A stretch of DNA of 64,000 bases, from contig JAUVXV010000015.1 in NCBI GenBank assembly GCA_030603365.1, positions 40,421-104,420 on the forward strand. Direction: 5' to 3'. The notes below the pieces were generated by a model. It was not told where the DNA came from, did not search any database, and saw only the letters and a list, made by a program, of their open reading frames with translations. The translations under genes were made by a program, and so were the position numbers. Below, in pieces: positions 12,809 through 28,490 of this stretch. The DNA is from Candidatus Heimdallarchaeota archaeon. Its GTDB lineage: Archaea > Asgardarchaeota > Heimdallarchaeia > Heimdallarchaeales > Heimdallarchaeaceae. Position 1 is the first letter of the stretch. Every line of letters starts with the position of its first letter.

Positions 12809-13078
12809 AATTGGGAATAAATTCGTACTTACTTATATGTTTGTAAAAATCAGATTTAAACTCAAAATTACAAATGATTCATCATACTCTGTCGAGAATA
12901 AATATCAGAATTCTAGCTTGGACTTGCTTCCAGTTGAAATAGAGGTGATTTCCACTGCCAAGAAGCTACTGTGATTCTATAAGGAAGAGAATATAATAAG
13001 GTGTCTTCCTGTTTTCTCAAACGAATTTCTTTGCATTGTTTTGAAAAATAAAATTCTAGAAGTAAGATTCCGTGAGAA

Positions 13079-13483: not shown

Positions 13484-16207
13484 TTAATTTAGAGTAAAAC
13501 CATATCTTCTACTTCTACTTTTAAATGCATCCTCGCCCCCTTCTAAGGAAATTACAGATTTCAAAGTTTCAGGACAATCAAGATAACCAGTTTGATTAAC
13601 TTTACCCTTTTTATCACCTAAAGCTTTGATTTCATGTATCAATTCTGAATCAGCTAACACTGGAATGTTGGGATTGTGTGTAACGAATATTTGTTGAGTA
13701 TGATATTTCGATTTACTAATAGCATCAATTACTTGTGTAATAAAATAATGATGATCCATTTCTGATTCAGGAGTATCTATTATCAAGATTCTAGGATTTG
13801 ATTTTTGAAGTAGAATTATACTCAAAATAGTGCCACATTTTTCCCCTAGACTAAGTTCTTCTAGCTGTTCATGTTTTAAATCTTTCAATAATTGTATTCT
13901 AGGCAGGTGGGGCACGGGTTGCATTATAGCATTCATAAAACCTTCATCAATTCTTTTGGTATGAAGAATAGAAACAACTCTTTTATCCACATTTTTCTCG
14001 AGCAACTGAGAGTATTTAGATGTAGAATTTAAATATTCAAACAATTCTAAAGGATGTACAAAAGTTTTTAACAGATTTCTAAATTTAATTTCTTTGTTTC
14101 TAATTTTATATTCATTCCCAGTGAATTTAATAACTAGATTATCAATTACTTCATCCAAATAACGTTTATTACTGAACTCGATTCTAATATTGGGCAAATT
14201 TTTGCTTATGTACGAAGCAGTTTCATCTCTCTTTTTTTGAATTTTTGAATCAATTTTTATAATTTGTTTTATATTCCTAAGTATGCCATTTTCTATTTCA
14301 ATAATTTCCTTGTTTAATTCTTCATACTCAGGAATAAAAGTTTTATTTATTGAAATCAATTCTTCCCTTTTACCATTTAGATTATCAACAATTGCACCAA
14401 CATCATGTGTGGTTTTGTCCAATTTAGATTTGTACTCACTCTCAACCTCATCGTACATCTTTTTCCATTTATCCAACAAACCGCTTATTTCATCATGGAT
14501 TTTAATAGTTAAACTTTCATTTAGTATGCTACGAACTCTCTCTTTCAGCTGATCTATAAATTCGCTATTTTTTACAGAAATTTCATTTATTAAATCATTA
14601 TTCAAAATTGAATCTTTCTCTAAAGTAGGAGTTTTTGGATAAGGTACATCACACATCACAGTAGCTATTTTCTCAAGAAATTTTTGTGTGTTTTTTATAA
14701 ACTTGAATTCTTCTTGCCATTCCTGATAATTTTGGACAAAATCAAATTTAACTAGAGCGGATAGTTCATCAATTCTATCTTCTAAATTTCCTTTTTGGTT
14801 TATTTTTTCTTCTAGGGTTTCAATTTTCTCTTGAATTTCAATAATTTCTTGTATTTTACTTTTAATATATCCACATTCTTTGTTTCTTAGTTTGAAGAGC
14901 TTTTTATCCTCAATATAATCATCAATGAGTTTAAGCTGATCACCGGTTTTCTTAGCTATTTCAACAAGCTCTCCTTGACCATAAATTTCTGTTTCTATAA
15001 GTGTGCTTAATTTTTCAACTTCTTCACGAATAATACTATCATTGTGCAAGTAAAATAGAATTGTATTTCCTTGATTAGAAATATCTTCTACATATGTTCT
15101 CTTCACAATGTACAATTTACCATCATTACCGTAAAAATATACATATACTGAGTTACCGTATGATAGAAGATTCATTATCTTGGATTCATATTCTTTATAA
15201 CCTATTTCAGTAATCGGTAAATCATTGAATGCAAATTGAATCAGATTAACTAAAGTTGATTTTCCAGCACCTCTACCTCCAATCAAAACATTAAGATTAG
15301 GATGAAAAGCTATCAATTCATCCTCAAAATATCCACCTGAAACATGTACTCCCAAAATTCTTTGTTTAGTTATTGATGGTGGATCTTGCCTAATTACTCT
15401 TAATTTGGGTTCTCTCAGTACTTTCTTTAAGTTTTCAAATGTGGGATTTTGCATTTTTAGAAAAGAGTATCTTGAACCGATTTTTCTTTCATCCTCAGAT
15501 GTATCATCTAATGTATGACAATCTGAACCGAATAAACAAGGTCTATAGAGGAAGTTCAAACCTTCATCAGTTCCATCAAAGAACTTTGTATCATTTTCAT
15601 CTCTGATTTCTACAAAGAATGGCAAGTTTTTTATCCTTTCTGCAATCACAACTCTATATGAATCTCGAAATTCGTTTCCAAAGCCTTTATGACTACTTGA
15701 ATGAGCTAGAATAGCAATTCCATTTTTATCATTAATTATTTTGATAACTTCAAACAGACCTAAAGGATCAGGTTTAGCAACTGCAGTTTTTGGATCACAG
15801 TTTTCCTCAATATTAAGAGTTCGAAGAATTGAATTAATCATTGACTCTTCTTCATGTATTGCTATTACATGAACATAAGGATGTTGAGAAGAATCAACAA
15901 GAGATTTAGGTACGTTGATCTCCACACCTGCTAAGACTAATATTCCATACTTCATTGCTTTCTCTTTAAAAATTTCAAAATCCTTAATACAATTATGATC
16001 AGTTAGAGCAATTATTTCTAAACCAACATCATTGGCTTTTTTCATAAGCTTTTCAGCGTATTCATCAACAGTCAGATCTGATTTAACATCATATGAGTTT
16101 AGAGTGTGTATATGTAAATCAGCTTTATAGAATTTAGATGATTTTTCTTCTAAAATACCTAACAAAAGTTCGATATTTGCTTTAATTCTTTCATCCTCAG
16201 ATTTCAT
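13484..16207 (-). CDS. PHP phosphoesterase fused to ABC/SMC-like ATPase (Ppl/TrlF-like defence protein)
   Basis: KADLHIHT, ALTDHN, GVEI, LAH, GSDCH (PHP); Walker A GGRGAGKST, coiled coil, LSLGEK, LIIDTPE, FVTHNPNIPV. Confidence 0.85.
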   Translation of the reverse strand: MKSEDERIKANIELLLGILEEKSSKFYKADLHIHTLNSYDVKSDLTVDEYAEKLMKKANDVGLEIIALTDHNCIKDFEIFKEKAMKYGILVLAGVEINVPKSLVDSSQHPYVHVIAIHEEESMINSILRTLNIEENCDPKTAVAKPDPLGLFEVIKIINDKNGIAILAHSSSHKGFGNEFRDSYRVVIAERIKNLPFFVEIRDENDTKFFDGTDEGLNFLYRPCLFGSDCHTLDDTSEDERKIGSRYSFLKMQNPTFENLKKVLREPKLRVIRQDPPSITKQRILGVHVSGGYFEDELIAFHPNLNVLIGGRGAGKSTLVNLIQFAFNDLPITEIGYKEYESKIMNLLSYGNSVYVYFYGNDGKLYIVKRTYVEDISNQGNTILFYLHNDSIIREEVEKLSTLIETEIYGQGELVEIAKKTGDQLKLIDDYIEDKKLFKLRNKECGYIKSKIQEIIEIQEKIETLEEKINQKGNLEDRIDELSALVKFDFVQNYQEWQEEFKFIKNTQKFLEKIATVMCDVPYPKTPTLEKDSILNNDLINEISVKNSEFIDQLKERVRSILNESLTIKIHDEISGLLDKWKKMYDEVESEYKSKLDKTTHDVGAIVDNLNGKREELISINKTFIPEYEELNKEIIEIENGILRNIKQIIKIDSKIQKKRDETASYISKNLPNIRIEFSNKRYLDEVIDNLVIKFTGNEYKIRNKEIKFRNLLKTFVHPLELFEYLNSTSKYSQLLEKNVDKRVVSILHTKRIDEGFMNAIMQPVPHLPRIQLLKDLKHEQLEELSLGEKCGTILSIILLQKSNPRILIIDTPESEMDHHYFITQVIDAISKSKYHTQQIFVTHNPNIPVLADSELIHEIKALGDKKGKVNQTGYLDCPETLKSVISLEGGEDAFKSRSRRYGFTLN

Positions 16208-16405: not shown

Positions 16406-16966
16406 TCATAAATGCATTATCTCAAAATCCCATTCTCCTTTCTTTTTATCGGATGGAATTCCTCTTCCTTCTCTATAATAGTTTTCATACCAACTTCCCT
16501 TATAGTTAATAAATCGGTAGAAATCAATATTCCTATCTATACTTAGAAAGTAGACTCTTTTAATGTCATCATCATATCTTTTTAGATCCTGAAATTTCTT
16601 AATATCTTTTTGAGCATCTTCATCTTTTAATTTTGGTAAAAATTTAAACTCAAAAACAAACCAAAATCGGCCTATATCTCTTGTCCAAATTTCTTCATAT
16701 TCCCATTCAGAATCTGCTTGTGATTTCATTATCACCAAATCGTAGAAGTAATTATTATCTGGATCTTTATATTGTAGGAACATTCTTATTCCCGGATATT
16801 TATCAATAAAAGGCCTCAGATAGTGATAAAATGAAGCAATTAAAGTATCTTCATAATACATTATCTTTCTATTCTCCAAATCTTCCTTTACTTTTACAGC
16901 CCATACTCTTTCAATTTCCTCCTCTAGTTCACTTATGTTAGGATAATCCTTCCTTCTTTCATTCAT
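16406..16966 (-). CDS. Putative PD-(D/E)XK restriction-endonuclease-like nuclease
   Basis: E-helix (YEDTLIASFYHYL), YDLVI, FEFKF, and DAQKDIKKFQDL helix typical of this fold. Confidence 0.55.
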   Translation of the reverse strand: MNERRKDYPNISELEEEIERVWAVKVKEDLENRKIMYYEDTLIASFYHYLRPFIDKYPGIRMFLQYKDPDNNYFYDLVIMKSQADSEWEYEEIWTRDIGRFWFVFEFKFLPKLKDEDAQKDIKKFQDLKRYDDDIKRVYFLSIDRNIDFYRFINYKGSWYENYYREGRGIPSDKKKGEWDFEIMHL

Positions 16967-17206: not shown

Positions 17207-18274
17207 ATGGGTGAGAATATGGATAAAAGATATCAAGTATTTGTTAGTTCAACTTTTGAGGATTTAAAGGAAGAAAGAAGCGAGATTATTCATGCACTTT
17301 TAGAATTAAATTGCATTCCAAGTGGAATGGAATTGTTTCCTGCAGCAAATGAAGATCAATGGACTCTAATAAAACAAGTAATTGAAGATTGTGATTATTA
17401 TATTGTGATAGTTGGAGGAAGATATGGTTCAATAGGAATTGATGGGACAAGTTATACAGAAATGGAATATGATTATGCAGTAGAATCAGGAAAACCTGTA
17501 ATTGCTTTTTTACATGAAAATCCGGACAACCTTCCAGTTAGAAAAGTAGATAGAGAAACACAGAAATCAGAAAAATTAAACCAGTTCAGATTGAAGCTTA
17601 AAGAAAAAGTGTGCAAAACATGGACTAATGCTGAGAATCTGGGAGCTGTAGTTAGCAGAAGTTTAATTAGTTTGATGAAAACTCATCCAGCTGTTGGTTG
17701 GGTGAGGGGAGATTTAATTCCTGATGAGGACGCAACTAAAGAGATTTTAAATTTAAGAAGAGAAATAGATGAGTTAAATCAAAGATTATCAGAGTATGAA
17801 AAAGAGACAATAACTGATATAGACAACTTATCTAAAGGTGAGGATAAGTTTGATATTATCTATTCATTCAGTGTTACTAGAGGATTATTAGATGTTTATA
17901 CTTATGAATATAACAGCGTAGCTGTTAAATGGAATGAGATTTTTGCTGAAATTGCACCTTTGATGATTGCTGAAGCATCTGAAGAAAAACTTAAGCGGAG
18001 AATAAATAAATTTCTGGAAAGAGAACTTAAGCTCAAAATACCTGACGAACTTCTTAGATTGAAAGAAAAGGGGACACTTAGATTGGGATCCTTCAGAATC
18101 ATTGATAAAAGCTTTGATTCAATAAAAGTACAATTCCGAGCTTTAGGATTAATAGAAAAAAGCACAAAAAAGCGAAGTGTTACAGATTTAAATGCATATT
18201 GGATTCTCACCAGAACTGGGGACTTATTCATGACACAGCTAATGGCAATAAAAAAAGAAGAACAGCCTCTATGA
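17207..18274 (+). CDS. DUF4062 (TIR-like Rossmannoid) domain protein with coiled coil and C-terminal wHTH-like domain
   Basis: YQVFVSSTFEDLKEER, GMELFPA, IVGGRYGS, SYTEMEYDYA. Confidence 0.88.
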   Translation: MGENMDKRYQVFVSSTFEDLKEERSEIIHALLELNCIPSGMELFPAANEDQWTLIKQVIEDCDYYIVIVGGRYGSIGIDGTSYTEMEYDYAVESGKPVIAFLHENPDNLPVRKVDRETQKSEKLNQFRLKLKEKVCKTWTNAENLGAVVSRSLISLMKTHPAVGWVRGDLIPDEDATKEILNLRREIDELNQRLSEYEKETITDIDNLSKGEDKFDIIYSFSVTRGLLDVYTYEYNSVAVKWNEIFAEIAPLMIAEASEEKLKRRINKFLERELKLKIPDELLRLKEKGTLRLGSFRIIDKSFDSIKVQFRALGLIEKSTKKRSVTDLNAYWILTRTGDLFMTQLMAIKKEEQPL

Positions 18275-18707: not shown

Positions 18708-21700
18708 ATGGACCCAGTATCAACTTATCTAATTCTCACTCTGATGGTTCCAATAATATCGGAATTTTTTGGAGATAAACTTTTGAATAGAATATTAGAA
18801 AAACTAAAGTCTTTATTTAAGAGATCATCTAAAAACGAGGTTGATTCAGAAAAAATTGAAGAAAAGATGAGTACTTATCTTAATGATATTTTAGATGAAA
18901 ACGGAGAAAATTCTCAAGAGTTCAAGAAGATACCTTCTTTCTTGATACATATGGGAGAGACAATATCCAAAGTGATCAAACTCTCTGCAGATGAACAAGT
19001 CAAACAAATTAGTATTCAAATTTCATCTGAATTTGAAAAACTTGAAGCAAAAACTGAACTACAGTTTAAAGAATTGAAGAATCTATTTGAAGAATTCCAA
19101 TTTAATATACTAAAGTATTCTAAGGATTTAAACGAAATTAACCAAGAGTTAAAAAATCAACTTACCATATTGAGAAAAAAAATCCAAGAATTTGACACAT
19201 TAATTTCAAAAGAAAATTTAATTCCTCTAAATTACTATCTAAATAGACAAGAAAGTAGAAGAATGCTAGAAAGGCACCCAAAATTAATTGGCAGGTCATA
19301 TGAAATTAATAGATTACTTAATTTTCTAAATAGCAATCAAAACGTAATTTTGATATCAGGTCCAGGAGGAGTTGGAAAAACAAGGCTTATACTAGAATTT
19401 GCAAAGGAGGTTATGAAGTTAAATTCTTGGAGTGTAAATTTCATTAACCACAATAAGGAATTCAAAGTTCAACATGAGACAATTAACAGAGTATTGATTT
19501 TGGATGATGCAACTAGGTATGCAGATAAAATGTCTCTTATTGACTATATCATAAACAATTCAAGAATTAATAATATGAAGTTTATTCTTTTGGATCGAAG
19601 TATATTTAGTCAATCCTTGCAATTGGTATTTAAAGAAAAGAATCACAATCTGGAAATTATTAATTTATCAGAAGGTGATGTAAAAGAATTCTTGGATTGC
19701 TATTACAAGGAATTAAATGAGGAAATAAAGAGAGAAATTAGACAAAAATCAAATAACAACTTTGATTTAACAATTCTATTCGCTGATTTCGCTATTAACA
19801 ATCTAGATATCTCAGATCCATTAGAAATACTTGAAACCAAATTAGTGAAATATATAAAGGATATTGCTATTAGAAGGAAAGTAGATGAAATAGATGTTAT
19901 GACAACATTAAGTTTTATATCACTAATCCGTCCAATTAAAATTGATGATCTTAAATTATTAGCACTCGAATCATCATCTATTCTTAAAAATGAAGATATT
20001 ATTAGTGTTTTATATGATGGTACATCAGATCTTTTAGTTTTGAAGGATGACTATGTAGATTTTATCTTTGATTTTTATTCAGATTATTTGAATGCAAAAC
20101 TTATAATCGAGAAGGAAGACATATTTTTACAAAATTTCCATTCTTTGCTTAAAAAACACCCATTAAATCTGACTTTAAACATTTTAGGTTTATCAAGGTT
20201 TTTTGATGTAAGAATAGGTATAAAAGTTGTAGAAATTATAGAGAATATTTGGTCTGAATTGAACAAGATTCAAAAAGTTGAGGTTGACTATTTCTTGTGT
20301 TTAGGATTGTTAACATTTTATTCAGAATATTTCGCATTTATTAATATAAACTCATGCTCATTAGATGCATGGTTTATAAATTACCAGAATCTATATGATA
20401 AGACGAGTGATAGTGAAAATTTAAAAAGACTCCAATTTGAATTCATTTCAATCTTACAAAACTATATCTCTATACATAAATCTGAGTATAATTTAGAGAA
20501 AATTAAAAGAGCTGTTGATTTTGTTAAAAATCTCTCAGAGGAACAAAAAACACAAGATCTCAATATAATGTATGCAAGAAGTTTGGTAAACGCTAGTGCT
20601 GTAACTAGCTTTCACAGCTTAGTAGATGAAACAAACTACTATATAGAAAAAATCAGAAAATTATACGAAACTAGCAGAGACAATCGTATTTTAGAAATCT
20701 TTTCTATTTCACTTAGTAATAGAATATTAGATTCTAGTCAAAGAGAAAATGAAACTGAGTTAATTGAATATATGACTGAGATTCAGAATTTATTTGAAAC
20801 TGAAAACAAAGAATATGTATCAATAGGATTAAGCAACTCACTAAATATTTCCTGTGATTTTTATGGCAAAAAAAACAAATTTGAGAAACTAGAATTCTAT
20901 ATGAGAAAATTAACAGATTTATCTAATGAATTCGAAACAATGCAGATTAGAAGTTCTTTAAATTCTGTTCTATTAAATTCAACAGATGATTATGGAAGAA
21001 ATGGTATGTGGTCAGAATTGGAAAAATCTCTAAATCAACTAGAATTGATATTTGATACCTATCAAGAAGAAGATACACTTGTTAATTGGATAAAAGGTAT
21101 AGCTAATTCAATAAAATACTATGGCAAAAATAAAATGTACAATGAAATGACATTAGGATTGAATAAACTTACACAGATTTATAAAAAACATAGTTTTATG
21201 AATACAGCAGAGTGGATTTCCCATGCTTTATTTAATGCATCTTATCACTATAGTAAAAATATGAGTACAGAACATCTTAAAGGTATAGTAAAGACCATTT
21301 CTTCACTTGCAAATAAATTTGATAATAATGATTTAAGAGAAAAGTATGCAGGAGTACTCTTTAACATAATTAAAACATACGGTGAACTCAAGAATTTTAA
21401 AAATATGGAAGTCTATTTAGGTGAACTTCATTTTCTTCAAAGTAAATTTCCTTTACAGCCAATAAAGCTATTCTACGTGAAAGCTTTAGTGGATTGTTTT
21501 ACCTATTATGCTATGGACTCAAATAATACAAAAGCAAAAGATTGTCTGAAAGAAATTGAAGAAATAAATAAAGTTTTGAATAATCATGAAATAAGGGAAA
21601 AGTATGGTTTTGTACTTACAAATGCTATACATTTTTATGGAATGAACAAAGAACCGAAAAATATTGAATCAATTATTGAAAAACTGAAAATCCTATTTGA

Positions 21701-22376
21701 ATCAAATCCCTCAGGTTTCTTTTTAGAATTTTATTCAAGAGGTCTGTTAAATGTTATCACTCAATTTGGTCAACTAAACGATCTGAATAAACTTGATCTG
21801 TATTTTGAAGTTTTAAACAACTTATATGATAGTACTGGAAACGACTTTTGTTTAATGGACTTATTATCAGCATATATTAATGTGATATTTTCTCTTTCTC
21901 AAGAAAGAAATATAGAAAAGATAAAATTGTACCTAAAGAAATTTAAAAAGAAATTCAAAATAGGATACAATGAAGTAATTGATATGGCTATTGCTAATAT
22001 ATACTTCAATATACTTCCGGTTTTTGATGTTGATCCGGAATTTTTCTTTGTTTTTACAATTAGATTATATAATTTGCGCTTTCATTTGTTTGAATTTAGT
22101 CCTTTATCTCCACAGAATGAGAAGAATGTTTTCATGTTTGAAAAACCAGATAAAGAGCATGCAATAAAGACAATTGAAAACAAAATTGTAAACTATGTAA
22201 GAAATAAAGTAATCACTTTAATAGAAAGAAATACAGATGAAACAAGAGAAATTCTAAACATTCTCAAGAAAGAAGTAAAGAATTATCATGATTTCACTAT
22301 TCTGTTGGATAAGATTATTGAAAAAATTGATGTTAGTCTTCAATCAAAGATCTTTAAGATAATTGATGAATTATAA
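18708..22376 (+). CDS. STAND/NLR-like P-loop NTPase with N-terminal helical domain and C-terminal 43-aa helical repeats
   Basis: LIGRSYEI, Walker A GPGGVGKTRL, Walker B VLILDDA, sensor-1-like FILLDR; about 11 repeats such as LREKYAGVLFNIIKTYG. Confidence 0.8.
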   Translation: MDPVSTYLILTLMVPIISEFFGDKLLNRILEKLKSLFKRSSKNEVDSEKIEEKMSTYLNDILDENGENSQEFKKIPSFLIHMGETISKVIKLSADEQVKQISIQISSEFEKLEAKTELQFKELKNLFEEFQFNILKYSKDLNEINQELKNQLTILRKKIQEFDTLISKENLIPLNYYLNRQESRRMLERHPKLIGRSYEINRLLNFLNSNQNVILISGPGGVGKTRLILEFAKEVMKLNSWSVNFINHNKEFKVQHETINRVLILDDATRYADKMSLIDYIINNSRINNMKFILLDRSIFSQSLQLVFKEKNHNLEIINLSEGDVKEFLDCYYKELNEEIKREIRQKSNNNFDLTILFADFAINNLDISDPLEILETKLVKYIKDIAIRRKVDEIDVMTTLSFISLIRPIKIDDLKLLALESSSILKNEDIISVLYDGTSDLLVLKDDYVDFIFDFYSDYLNAKLIIEKEDIFLQNFHSLLKKHPLNLTLNILGLSRFFDVRIGIKVVEIIENIWSELNKIQKVEVDYFLCLGLLTFYSEYFAFININSCSLDAWFINYQNLYDKTSDSENLKRLQFEFISILQNYISIHKSEYNLEKIKRAVDFVKNLSEEQKTQDLNIMYARSLVNASAVTSFHSLVDETNYYIEKIRKLYETSRDNRILEIFSISLSNRILDSSQRENETELIEYMTEIQNLFETENKEYVSIGLSNSLNISCDFYGKKNKFEKLEFYMRKLTDLSNEFETMQIRSSLNSVLLNSTDDYGRNGMWSELEKSLNQLELIFDTYQEEDTLVNWIKGIANSIKYYGKNKMYNEMTLGLNKLTQIYKKHSFMNTAEWISHALFNASYHYSKNMSTEHLKGIVKTISSLANKFDNNDLREKYAGVLFNIIKTYGELKNFKNMEVYLGELHFLQSKFPLQPIKLFYVKALVDCFTYYAMDSNNTKAKDCLKEIEEINKVLNNHEIREKYGFVLTNAIHFYGMNKEPKNIESIIEKLKILFESNPSGFFLEFYSRGLLNVITQFGQLNDLNKLDLYFEVLNNLYDSTGNDFCLMDLLSAYINVIFSLSQERNIEKIKLYLKKFKKKFKIGYNEVIDMAIANIYFNILPVFDVDPEFFFVFTIRLYNLRFHLFEFSPLSPQNEKNVFMFEKPDKEHAIKTIENKIVNYVRNKVITLIERNTDETREILNILKKEVKNYHDFTILLDKIIEKIDVSLQSKIFKIIDEL

Positions 22377-22536: not shown

Positions 22537-25080
22537 ATGGTTGATATATTCCAAATTATGAATAGTAGACTAAACACTTGTTTGTTAAGTATTGAAGAAA
22601 ATCTAAAGTCCTTCTGGAATGATAGAGTACTTCACCAACATTATACTGATCATGGAATGAACCATAGTTTTAGAATCAAACAGATTCTTACAAAATTGTT
22701 AGAGGAATTTCCAGATGCACTAAATGAATATGAGAAATTTATACTATTAGGAGCAGCTTTATTACACGACATAGGAATGCAATTTCCAAGTTATTCCAAA
22801 ATTGAGTTAAAAGCACAATATTCACTTGAAGAATTAGAAAGAATCAGAAAGAACCATCACTTAGCTAGTTTTCAGATTATCAAAGATTCAATATCTCCTA
22901 AAACCAATTTCTCACTTGGTTTAGAAACCTGTAAGGATTTTATAAATGAGATTGCGATTGTGTCTCGTAATCATAGAGGGATTAAACTAAATACTATAAG
23001 CAAAAGTTCAATTGCAGGAATGCTCATTAGAAGGAGATTGTTATCAGCATTGCTACGTTTAGCAGATGAATTAGATTCCGATTTTAGGAGGGTTAATATG
23101 GATGTACTTAACATGTATAACTTGCCTCCCTTAAGCAAGTTTCACTGGTGGTCACACCATTATGTAGAGAGTATAATGATTGATAAAGGACACATAATCG
23201 TGTACTTTAGATTTCCAGTAAGCTTCAAACAAGATCAAAAGTGGGTTTCTATTTTTCAACAAAAAACTATAGAAAGTTTGAGAAGTACGTTTCTTGAAAC
23301 TTATGACATCCTAGATGAAAACAAAATTAGACTTTATCGAGAAATAAAAATTGGAAACACTAGGTTTACATCTGAAGGAGAAGTTTTTGATATTCCTAAC
23401 GACTTAAGACAATTTATTACTGAAAAGATAATTAATTCTCAAGAGAAAATCGAAAATGCTTCCAATCGTATTTCTATGGAATTTTATTTAGATGGAATTC
23501 CATACTCAAATGAAATAAATGCAATACAATTCTTAGAAAAGATAGCAGAAAAATTGGATGGTGAAGATTATGAATCAGCTGCTGTACTAATCGAAAAAAG
23601 CAAAACCGAAATTCATTCTGCCAAAGATAGACTAGTTTTATTGCAAATGGCAGGAGTATGTTACTTTAATTTAGGTAAATATGATTTATCCGAAATCTAC
23701 CTAAAAGAAATCCTCGAATTGTCTACTAAGAGTAATTTAAGAAATATCTATAACCAAATCGTAACCAGAGTTTCATCAGCATCTAATAATAATCTAGGAC
23801 TTATGAAATTACACAAAGGCGAATTTACAAAAGCTCTAGAATTTTTCGAAAAATCGATAGAAGAATGTAATACTATAAAAAATCTTGATGGAAAAGCGAT
23901 TGCGATTGATAATAAAGGAGTGGTCCTTCAAAGATTAGGATTGTTAGATGATGCTTTAAAATGTCATTTTGATGCAAATAAGATCTACAAAATAAATAAA
24001 AGAAAATTCGGTGGAGCTAAATCATTTGGAAATATAGCTAATGTATATTTAATGCAGAATAATCTTGATGAAGCTATAAAATATTCTAGAAAAGCAATGA
24101 AATTATTCACTGATTTGGGGAATAAAAGTGGTGAAGCAGAAGAATTACAAACCATTGGAATAATTCACAATCAAAAAAGAAATTTCAAGGAAGCTTTGAA
24201 GAATTTTGCTCAATCTTACAAACTGTTTAATGCAATTGGATTTAAGAGAGGAATTTTAGTAACAAAACATAACATTGCTGGGATTCTGCTTGAAGAAGGC
24301 AGATACGAGTCTTCTTTGAGAATACTTAACAAGATCTTATTGGAAAGTCAAAAAATTGAAAATATGGACCAAGTAGTTTCTGTAATTACAAGCATAGGTG
24401 ATGTCTATTATAGAAAAAGAAACATTAGAACTGCTTTAGATTATTATGAGAGAAGTTTAGAAATGATTAACTATGCTAATTATAATGTAACTAAAAAAAT
24501 ATACTTTAACATTTCATTATTATACGCAGAACTGAATATTATTGAGAAAGCTCAAGAGTTTTTTGAACTACTCTTAGAAAAATATCCAGAAGATGCTGAC
24601 ATTTGTAGTAATTATGCATTGTTTCTATTTTCAAAATTGAACAATATATCAGATGCTGAAATTTATTTTGAGAAAGCAATTAAATTAGATCCAAAAAATC
24701 AAAATAATCATTTAAACTATGCTAGTATGTTACTTTCAGTAGGAAAGAGTGAAGGAATTAGCATTCTTCAATCAACAACCTTTACTAGTAAAGATGCAGA
24801 ACTCAATAAATTGCTAGAACTTGAAAAATCTCTTTATTTGTTTCTCCATGAAAGTCAAGAGGATCCTAATGTGGATTATCTTGTTAACATAAAAACGCTT
24901 CTAGAGAAAGGTTATATCTCTCAAGGAATGGACTTTAGTAGAAACATTGAACAAGCAATTAGAAGTGGTCATAAATATAAAGAAATCTTAGATATTTTGG
25001 GAGAAGTTATATCTGGTGAAATGAGTATTGATGCACTAGAAACATTCGAAATCTGGCAAAAAGTTGAAACAAAGATATAA
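22537..25080 (+). CDS. HD-domain (HD-CE-like) phosphohydrolase fused to a TPR array
   Basis: YTDHGMNHSFRI, AALLHDIGM, RKNHH, LRLADELD, FHW; ~40-aa TPRs such as SFGNIANVYLMQNNLDEAIKYSRKAM. Confidence 0.82.
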   Translation: MVDIFQIMNSRLNTCLLSIEENLKSFWNDRVLHQHYTDHGMNHSFRIKQILTKLLEEFPDALNEYEKFILLGAALLHDIGMQFPSYSKIELKAQYSLEELERIRKNHHLASFQIIKDSISPKTNFSLGLETCKDFINEIAIVSRNHRGIKLNTISKSSIAGMLIRRRLLSALLRLADELDSDFRRVNMDVLNMYNLPPLSKFHWWSHHYVESIMIDKGHIIVYFRFPVSFKQDQKWVSIFQQKTIESLRSTFLETYDILDENKIRLYREIKIGNTRFTSEGEVFDIPNDLRQFITEKIINSQEKIENASNRISMEFYLDGIPYSNEINAIQFLEKIAEKLDGEDYESAAVLIEKSKTEIHSAKDRLVLLQMAGVCYFNLGKYDLSEIYLKEILELSTKSNLRNIYNQIVTRVSSASNNNLGLMKLHKGEFTKALEFFEKSIEECNTIKNLDGKAIAIDNKGVVLQRLGLLDDALKCHFDANKIYKINKRKFGGAKSFGNIANVYLMQNNLDEAIKYSRKAMKLFTDLGNKSGEAEELQTIGIIHNQKRNFKEALKNFAQSYKLFNAIGFKRGILVTKHNIAGILLEEGRYESSLRILNKILLESQKIENMDQVVSVITSIGDVYYRKRNIRTALDYYERSLEMINYANYNVTKKIYFNISLLYAELNIIEKAQEFFELLLEKYPEDADICSNYALFLFSKLNNISDAEIYFEKAIKLDPKNQNNHLNYASMLLSVGKSEGISILQSTTFTSKDAELNKLLELEKSLYLFLHESQEDPNVDYLVNIKTLLEKGYISQGMDFSRNIEQAIRSGHKYKEILDILGEVISGEMSIDALETFEIWQKVETKI

Positions 25081-25414
25081 TAAATCAACTGATCCCATCC
25101 TTCATTGTAATAAATAACATTATTGAAATATCAGTTTTGACTATACAGATGTTTTTACTTCTTCTCTTCTACTTCATTTTCTTTAGATTATCTAATCTCT
25201 TGTGCAGTAGATGGAGTTCTGTTAAAGTTCTCTTTCGGAATTTTAGTTATTCGACAACAATTCTATCTTTTTTGCTGATTCTTCTAGATTACTAGACTAA
25301 AGTCCATAATTATATCCCTATACTCTAATTTGTCATAACCCATAGTGATTCCTTTTTTTCAGTATAATGCAATTGATTTTCTCTTAATTGTCAGTAAGGT
25401 GTCTTCTTGTTTCC

Positions 25415-25506
25415 TCTTCTTTCTTAAAGCTACATTAGATTTCAGATAAGAAGATGTATTCAAAGAGTTTAGAAAATCCAAGAAGAAGACCTTCATTCAA
25501 GGTCTT
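25415..25506 (+). repeat. Dispersed intergenic repeat, long copy 2 with terminal hairpin
   Basis: ~90 bp aligns with 30815-30903 (shared aagatgtattcaaagagtttagaa); perfect stem aagacctt-cattc-aaggtctt at 25486-25506. Confidence 0.8.
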
Positions 25507-27368: not shown

Positions 27369-28490
27369 ATGAATAAGAAATTTACGATTGATGAATCTGA
27401 CAAAGTAACTGTCAAGATTATAAAAAATCGTTATATGGATTTTCTTAAAGATCCAAATGTAGTTGGAGTAGCTGTTGGTAGAAAGATACGTGATGGCAAA
27501 GTGACAGATGAACCTTGTATTACTTTTTTTGTAGCTAAAAAAATAGTTAATGAGAAAAAAATACTTCCTGAATTTCTTTTACCTCAGACACTTGAAGAAG
27601 ATGCTGTAGAAGTACAGAGTGATGTAGTAGAGACTGGTCATATATATGCATATGCGGCACATACTTCTCGAGAACGTCCAGCGGTACCTGGTGCTAGCAT
27701 TGGTCATGTTGATGTAACAGCAGGAACGTTAGGAGCAATAGTAATTGATGATAAATCAAAAACCCAAGTTATATTATCAAACAACCATGTTTTAGCAGAT
27801 AGTAATAGAGCCTCTACAAACGATGATATTCTGCAACCAGGTAAAGCTGATGGAGGAACCGTTCCAAATGATGTCATTGGAAATTTACTCAGATTCAAAA
27901 CAATTGATTTTGCTGGAGGTACAAATTACATTGATGCTGCTATTTGCAGCGTGAAAAAGCCTAATTATATTAGTAATACTCCCCATGATGGTATACCAGC
28001 TCCATCGCCTAAGACTCAAGCAGTTGGTTTACTTTTTGCTGGATCAAGTACTCAAACTATAATAAATCCTATCGGTATTGTTCTCAATGAGCTTAAAATC
28101 TCTTTACCTGCAGGTTCTACAATTGAAGGTAGTATTGGTATGAATGTTCAGAAAACTGGTCGAACAACAGGTGGAACAACTAATACAATAAAGAACATAA
28201 ATGCAACAGTTAGAGTTAATTATGGCTCTGCTGGAGAAGCAGTTTTTAGCGACCAAATTGTAACTGGTGACATGTCTGACGGCGGTGATAGCGGTTCTTT
28301 AGTTGTCAAAGGAGGAGCTGGAGCACCAGATGAACCACCAGATAAACCACCAACAAAACCTGGTCCTTGTCCTTGTGGAATTTTCGCACTAGTAGATCCC
28401 CAATTAGACTATACTACAAGTAAAATAGTATTCAATGCATTTAAAGCAAAAAGATTAGCTAAAAAGGAACTGAAGAATAAGAAACAATAA
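27369..28490 (+). CDS. Trypsin-like (S1, NAL1-like) serine protease with N-terminal pro-like domain, no signal peptide
   Basis: TAGTLG, LSNNHVLA (His), ILQPG, IDAAI (Asp), KTGRTTG, GDSGSL (Ser). Confidence 0.85.
   Translation: MNKKFTIDESDKVTVKIIKNRYMDFLKDPNVVGVAVGRKIRDGKVTDEPCITFFVAKKIVNEKKILPEFLLPQTLEEDAVEVQSDVVETGHIYAYAAHTSRERPAVPGASIGHVDVTAGTLGAIVIDDKSKTQVILSNNHVLADSNRASTNDDILQPGKADGGTVPNDVIGNLLRFKTIDFAGGTNYIDAAICSVKKPNYISNTPHDGIPAPSPKTQAVGLLFAGSSTQTIINPIGIVLNELKISLPAGSTIEGSIGMNVQKTGRTTGGTTNTIKNINATVRVNYGSAGEAVFSDQIVTGDMSDGGDSGSLVVKGGAGAPDEPPDKPPTKPGPCPCGIFALVDPQLDYTTSKIVFNAFKAKRLAKKELKNKKQ

Follow-up and report, generated by a model that had tools for sequence, protein, structure and literature searches.

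The MEPIS region is common to Bab, Bell, HeLL, Avs2 and bNACHT02/11/23; its mutation impairs Avs2, and across the superfamily homology is sometimes nearly confined to this segment (Ibarlosa et al., 10.1101/2024.11.07.622273). In bNACHT11 the consensus reads MDPIT, the substitutions D2A and P3A abolish phage defence, and activation of the protein leads to plasmolysis (10.1101/2024.12.17.629029). Bell domains have been reported in Methanosarcinales (10.1101/2020.01.06.895854), and these putative cases are the only archaeal ones in the literature that we searched, which contained no paper with a MEPIS/MDPIT receptor in Archaea or on the STAND clade treated here. Counts of NLR-like systems exist for Asgard genomes, and recognisable defence systems appear to be scarce in Heimdallarchaeia (PMC11291487). 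Here we describe a gene at positions 18708-22376 of a 64,000-nucleotide stretch (the window) of contig JAUVXV010000015.1 from Candidatus Heimdallarchaeota archaeon (GCA_030603365.1). It encodes a receptor of the STAND (NLR-like) type that starts with MDPVS. With a probability of roughly 0.55, we read it as a single-protein abortive-infection receptor, led by a MEPIS/MDPIT motif, that would cluster its first helix to damage the membrane.

The initial annotation, made from the sequence alone, had reported an NLR-like open reading frame (ORF) in an Asgard-like archaeon, and this observation is confirmed. The host belongs to Heimdallarchaeaceae; its genome carries two actins, and the 90% clusters that take in its EF-1alpha, L2 and EF-2 bear the names Heimdallarchaeota or Heimdallarchaeaceae. 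The receptor frame opens with an ATG that has no in-frame start codon further upstream and a Shine-Dalgarno-like GGTGA 4 nt to its 5' side. It is intact across 1222 codons with all catalytic motifs kept, and no DNA-binding domain was found in it. The tripartite layout, a helical N-domain (amino acids (aa) 1-170) followed by a STAND NTPase and a sensor of 43-aa repeats, is borne out by the intact motifs, the fold matches and the repeat sensor. Its parts are as follows.

18708..22376, + strand: STAND (NLR-like) receptor gene, 1222 aa (ORF reading, GC comparison)
18708..18722, + strand: MDPVS (aa 1-5), a motif of MEPIS/MDPIT type with which the protein begins (sequence, published consensus motifs)
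18714..18827, + strand: hydrophobic helix (aa 3-21), then basic amphipathic helix (aa 22-40); candidate membrane-attacking segment
18828..19217, + strand: remaining orphan helical N-domain, in which three short helices over aa 47-112 precede a coiled-coil-like stalk over aa 117-170 (low-confidence AlphaFold2 (AF2) models)
19218..19667, + strand: STAND nucleotide-binding domain (aa 171-320) with GRxxE, Walker A 218-225, Walker B 262-267 and sensor-1 Arg297
19680..20402, + strand: aa 325-565, comprising helical domain 1, a winged-helix domain in which Asp455 and Asp459 are conserved, and a helical arm (model, alignment, structural matches)
20433..21980, + strand: sensor (aa 576-1091), made up of 12 helical 43-aa repeats of a type found across the family and not covered by a Pfam model
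21981..22373, + strand: non-repeat C-terminal cap (aa 1092-1222) (no periodicity, no paralog in the genome)

The MDPVS start retains D2, P3, the aliphatic residue and the S/T of the published motifs, and the hydrophobic helix 1 follows it. Position-specific frequencies put the chance of a start matching M[DE]P[IV][ST] at about 3e-5 per ORF; of 2633 ORFs one has it, the receptor itself, where 0.09 would be expected. The MDPVS start noted in the initial annotation fits MEPIS/MDPIT, which is experimentally needed in Avs2 and bNACHT11, and this match is better support than the fungal analogy first offered. The genome's only other near-match, MDPLA, opens a 381-aa protein (G000 C1:529749-530894, + strand) that by eye resembles a P-loop ATPase with a winged helix at its C-terminus and has no hydrophobic first helix. 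No MEPIS-like start was seen in other Asgard P-loop ORFs with readable 5' ends (plus-strand frames, about 45 loci, many of them RFC).

Residues 4-22, in the opening hydrophobic helix noted by the initial annotation, form the most hydrophobic 19-residue window of the receptor, with a Kyte-Doolittle mean of 1.63 that is borderline for a transmembrane helix. This helix is evenly hydrophobic (moment 0.05-0.19) and helical in both AF2 models; the amphipathic helix behind it carries a net charge of +4 and a hydrophobic moment of 0.69. The N-domain as a whole is all-helical in both models and coiled-coil-like over aa 117-170, in agreement with the helical region of about 170 aa originally described, albeit at low confidence (pLDDT, the predicted local distance difference test, is 46 in the single-sequence model). 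Pfam and PADLOC searches found no enzymatic domain in aa 1-172. A fold search with this model, which is too poor to count, gave generic helical matches (best Z 8.2), and ESM Atlas gave weak leads to the helical domains NNH2 and NNH5 (0.85 and 0.78). Pfam matches to Phasin, ApoLp-III and EzrA were rejected as coiled-coil noise. Homology with other acidic hydrophobic starts was also unsupported: a hidden Markov model (HMM) of 11 family N-termini ranked the receptor 333 among 2483.

Behind the N-domain, the predicted P-loop GPGGVGKT (aa 218-225) and VLILDD (aa 262-267) are present, together with a sensor-1 LLDR (aa 294-297); G218-T225, D266 and R297 are nearly invariant in the family alignment. 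An AF2 model made for aa 1-620 has high confidence from aa 171 to aa 610 (pLDDT mostly 85-95 over helical domain 1, winged helix and arm), and its nucleotide-binding domain, helical domain, winged helix and arm have the STAND topology. Foldseek ranked SAMD9, Avs5, NLRP3 and Avs4 first (E 2e-7 to 3e-6), and VIA-align superposed 311 residues on NLRP9 (Z 18.1, root-mean-square deviation 4.2), with NOD2 and NLRC4 within 1 Z; ClpA-type ATPases scored lower (Z about 15 over about 200 residues). A non-STAND archaeal ATPase was rejected, with Orc1/Cdc6, archaeal ATPases and Clp proteins aligning over shorter lengths and ranking below the NLRs. In ESM Atlas the NTPase adjoins nSTAND3-type clusters and its nearest structures are nSTAND3/nSTAND5 (TM 0.54-0.57), while the Pfam scores for nSTAND3 and nSTAND5 stay under the gathering cut-offs (25.6 against 34 bits and 22.3 against 27.2). 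There was no Pfam NACHT match, NB-ARC matched over the P-loop only (E 0.022), and among the Avs1-5 models of PADLOC 2.0 none matched at full length, Avs2 again covering only the P-loop (E 0.013). Therefore, the NTPase is a STAND outside NACHT, NB-ARC and Avs1-5 as these last are modelled in PADLOC 2.0. The literal GxP of helical domain 1 is missing (SNNNF at 348-352; close family members have xSF or xNF, distant ones GNP), and the family motif IKPDP is replaced by FIFDF at aa 452-456.

The sensor has a real 43-aa period: compared with shuffled sequences, the BLOSUM autocorrelation of aa 560-1110 reaches a z of about 12-13 at each of the lags 43, 86 and 129. The earlier description of about 11 strict repeats holds for period and spacing; the count is 12 units, which run in register without indels, and their mean pairwise identity is only 17% (maximum 40%). 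Hypervariable, near-identical repeats of the fungal type were rejected on the same 17% mean identity and on finding no near-identical DNA copies. Elsewhere in the genome, a 696-aa protein (L008 2056-4146, - strand, equal to G000 C15) has the same 43-aa repeat (E 4e-21) and no NTPase; it may be a stand-alone sensor or a remnant.

Among described systems, bNACHT11 is like the receptor in being a one-protein NLR without an enzymatic effector, in its start of M-D-P-aliphatic-S/T and in the proposed clustering of this motif on oligomerisation (10.1101/2024.12.17.629029). It differs in its NACHT module, in its short SNaCT sensor and in an N-extension of 45 aa without notable hydrophobicity; in the receptor the NTPase is nSTAND3/5-like, the helical N-domain spans 170 aa and the sensor consists of twelve 43-aa repeats. 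EcAvs2/Avast2 likewise combines a motif-led helical N-domain with a STAND and a helical repeat sensor (10.1101/2024.11.07.622273); the receptor is nevertheless not an Avs2, given the P-loop-only match to that model and an unrelated sensor. With Bell/Bab, fungal HeLo/HeLL, MLKL, RPW8 and CC domains it shares an acidic residue 2 and a hydrophobic first helix followed by more helices. No HMM match to these was obtained, nor a fold match with the low-confidence model; the receptor has no mid-helix glycine and no amyloid-linked partner gene, and its N-domain is longer, with the coiled-coil-like stalk. Avs4, Avs5, SAMD9 and nSTAND3/nSTAND5 are the best structural neighbours of the NTPase and differ in effector and sensor. 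The novelty of the receptor had been overrated, motif-led all-in-one NLRs having already been described in bacteria.

An exhaustive search found 194 relatives, the best of which have NTPases 25-31% identical to that of the receptor, which itself sits on a long branch. Those with names are mostly archaeal (Methanosarcina, Methanolobus, Methanoperedens, including one plasmid, Methanophagales and Altiarchaeales), joined by one Zixibacterium and a few Asgards. The 43-aa repeat is a family trait and not peculiar to the receptor, because most long members carry a repeat of 43-44 aa, although their count is biased by a query that contained the repeats. The N-terminal slot varies: relatives have PNP, Schlafen, caspase, trypsin, DUF4062, TIR, Mrr, EAD10, wHTH-like, 2TM or other helical domains in it. 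In a quick tree built without bootstrap, the three nearest relatives (SH-aLRT 88, weak support) have 2TM, Schlafen and 2TM N-termini, and they adjoin Argonaute genes, type I restriction-modification and Schlafen genes, or Schlafen, HEPN and YaaC genes. P0018, with a 2TM-like N-terminus, lies on a Heimdallarchaeaceae contig, and one of the three nearest relatives is on such a contig. Several other family members sit alone among housekeeping genes. Defence STANDs have been recognised by the effector domains of their clade and/or by nearby defence genes (PMC13581612); effector content and neighbourhood both agree with this here, qualitatively and in a small sample. PADLOC 2.0 misses the receptor and its family.

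Four relatives deserve separate mention. The nearest, P0010 (L010 2535-10500), lies near a gene for an SMC/OLD-type ATPase and a two-gene Argonaute (Piwi) module. In another Asgard family (G127, L113 9112-11307), a protein with an NTPase of the same family begins with a 2TM-like segment, and canonical TPRs of 34 aa, very similar to one another, stand in for the 43-aa repeats: effector and sensor have both been swapped. A PNP-STAND relative from Halobacteriota (L160 10001-15412) is followed by an HD_3/YfbR-like gene. P0152 from Methanoperedens (L158/L159), in a record named as a plasmid and near an integrase, starts with MIIDPLF followed by a hydrophobic, Gly-containing helix and is a second candidate for a motif-led archaeal receptor. 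A few other members start similarly (P0009 with MIIDPLF, P0136 with MVEPVS), and their N-domains are not detectably related to that of the receptor.

Onto this anatomy we place a course of activation modelled on Avs, bNACHT11 and plant NLRs. At rest the receptor would be an autoinhibited monomer. A viral protein bound by the 43-aa repeats would trigger nucleotide exchange and, through it, ATP-driven oligomerisation, and the oligomer would cluster the N-domains and free helix 1. The freed helix could then disturb the cytoplasmic membrane, through ionic or osmotic collapse, and the infected cell would be killed or arrested. That the receptor is an antiviral STAND of some kind is very probable, and its setting among defence genes, like that of several relatives, is in line with the immune role first proposed.

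A number of observations weigh against the membrane-damaging mechanism. The motif evidence amounts to five residues in an orphan domain; V at position 4 was added to the published consensus after MDPVS had been seen, and the receptor was chosen from a very large scan partly for its motif. A word-index search among proteins of similar length or short proteins, PDB sequences, a metagenome scan and an all-against-all comparison with 106 family N-termini yielded no homolog of the N-domain, so that conservation of the motif cannot be checked. As to the suggested HeLo-, MLKL-, RPW8- or CC-like fold, none of the segments aa 1-60, 1-110 and 1-172 matched the HeLo, HeLL, MLKL, RPW8 or Rx_N profiles with E values up to 10; chains of MLKL, HeLo, CC or Bab were absent from the results of the fold search, a negative that carries no weight with a model of pLDDT 46. 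There is no Gly before position 22, whereas Bab needs Gly11 in the middle of helix 1. Acidic starts with a hydrophobic helix are not peculiar to the receptor either (7 of 1552 otherwise soluble ORFs have one). Finally, the archaeal membrane is made of ether lipids, on which toxicity is only predicted.

The receptor lies within an AT-rich, 12-kb island of five genes, bracketed by a 22-bp imperfect direct repeat.

12997..13018, + strand: left copy of the 22-bp imperfect direct repeat
13484..16207, - strand: Ppl-like defence protein, PHP plus SMC-type ATPase, 907 aa (PADLOC Ppl E 2.8e-33)
17207..18274, + strand: DUF4062-domain protein, 355 aa (Pfam E 5e-29)
22537..25080, + strand: HD-CE phosphohydrolase fused to TPRs, 847 aa (Pfam HD-CE E 4.5e-33; motifs present)
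25395..25416, + strand: right copy of the 22-bp direct repeat

The remaining island gene (16406-16966, - strand) encodes a 186-aa protein with no Pfam or PADLOC match, in which a D...E-x-K pattern noted by eye suggests a PD-(D/E)xK nuclease. The C-terminal domain of the HD-CE-TPR protein (aa 667-845) also occurs in other proteins of the same genus, and no full-length ortholog was found in the 200-300 Asgard genomes searched. Beyond the island, a 373-aa protein at 27369-28490 of the window weakly matches the plant trypsin-like protease Nal1 in each of its two domains.

These neighbours bear on an unlikely alternative, the best surviving of those we considered, in which the N-domain is a non-toxic adaptor or spacer and the oligomer recruits an effector in trans on the EAD principle, for example the HD-CE-TPR or the DUF4062 protein. 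The three genes are indeed co-oriented in one island, some relatives have EAD10 adaptors, the Atlas leads point weakly to NNH2 and NNH5, and a different HD gene lies downstream of one PNP-type relative. Homotypic EAD pairing, however, would need a partner with the same N-domain, which no other protein of the island or genome shares, and the genes are separated by a 160-bp AT-rich gap and a 433-bp gap. No HD-CE gene occurs at any fetched homolog locus, and four Asgard HD-CE loci are without a gene of the receptor's STAND family. The proposal that the receptor signals to its HD-TPR neighbour finds no support in gene context, no fetched homolog locus of either gene carrying the other; the HD-CE-TPR gene, for which no conserved linkage to the STAND gene was found, is probably an independent defence gene.

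Slightly less likely still is a constitutive anchoring of the receptor by helix 1, in the manner of the 2TM N-termini of the nearest relatives: it would sit at the membrane even at rest and act by clustering its anchors, or merely be localised there, and MDPVS would be incidental. The 2TM-like N-termini of P0010, P0018 and the Asgard homolog in G127 speak for such an anchor, as does a uniformly hydrophobic helix 1 followed by a basic one, the order found in signal-anchors; yet the hydropathy reaches just 1.63, Pro15 and Glu19 fall within the segment, and an improbable motif match would be left without explanation. Improbable as well is a non-functional or non-defence protein, whether the product of a decaying island gene that lacks an effector or a STAND ATPase with a regulatory role: the long branch, the low identity to the best relatives, the change of IKPDP to FIFDF and the interspersion of defence and non-defence STAND clades (PMC13581612) would suit it, but the intact frame, the complete catalytic motifs, the lack of a DNA-binding domain, the effectors of relatives and the neighbouring defence genes do not.

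Of the readings weighed, the motif-led, membrane-damaging receptor is thus the one we prefer, and its gene appears to be a recent arrival. At 26.6% its GC content is the second lowest among long genes of the genome (mean 33.9 +/- 2.4% for 537 genes). The bracketing repeat has only two copies in the whole genome, one on each side of the island; no integrase was seen among the island ORFs. A search of 24 genomes of the same genus (72-92% complete) did not find the receptor NTPase, and the family profile matched at full length in just one other of 400 Asgard genomes, where scoring 4 candidates per genome makes the negatives soft. Relatives that keep the left flank carry other genes beside it; because gene order past this flank differs in every relative, an empty insertion site is not demonstrable. 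Patchy occurrence, the negative search in the 24 same-genus genomes, low GC, the repeat-bracketed island and variable flank genes together point to recent horizontal gain and not to ancestral presence, as far as can be inferred. Its patchy, island-borne occurrence makes it very improbable that the receptor reflects a vertical ancestor of the eukaryotic HeLo, MLKL or CC death domains.

Its apparent horizontal gain limits the evolutionary weight of the gene, which tells us little about how eukaryotes arose. A working resistosome-like receptor in Heimdallarchaeia, in which the MEPIS-type helix of a STAND oligomer kills the cell through an ether-lipid membrane, is a tentative proposition to which we give a little short of even odds. 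The MEPIS/MDPIT helix has been proposed as a near-universal membrane-targeting death module of fungi, plants, animals and bacteria, and with an all-in-one receptor from the class nearest to eukaryotes the motif can be tried directly on archaeal lipids, which bears on whether the motif works on the membrane itself or by way of a partner protein. If the proposition is true, no motif-led NLR executioner would have been shown in Archaea before this one, whose STAND clade is undescribed and whose 43-aa sensor repeat is new.

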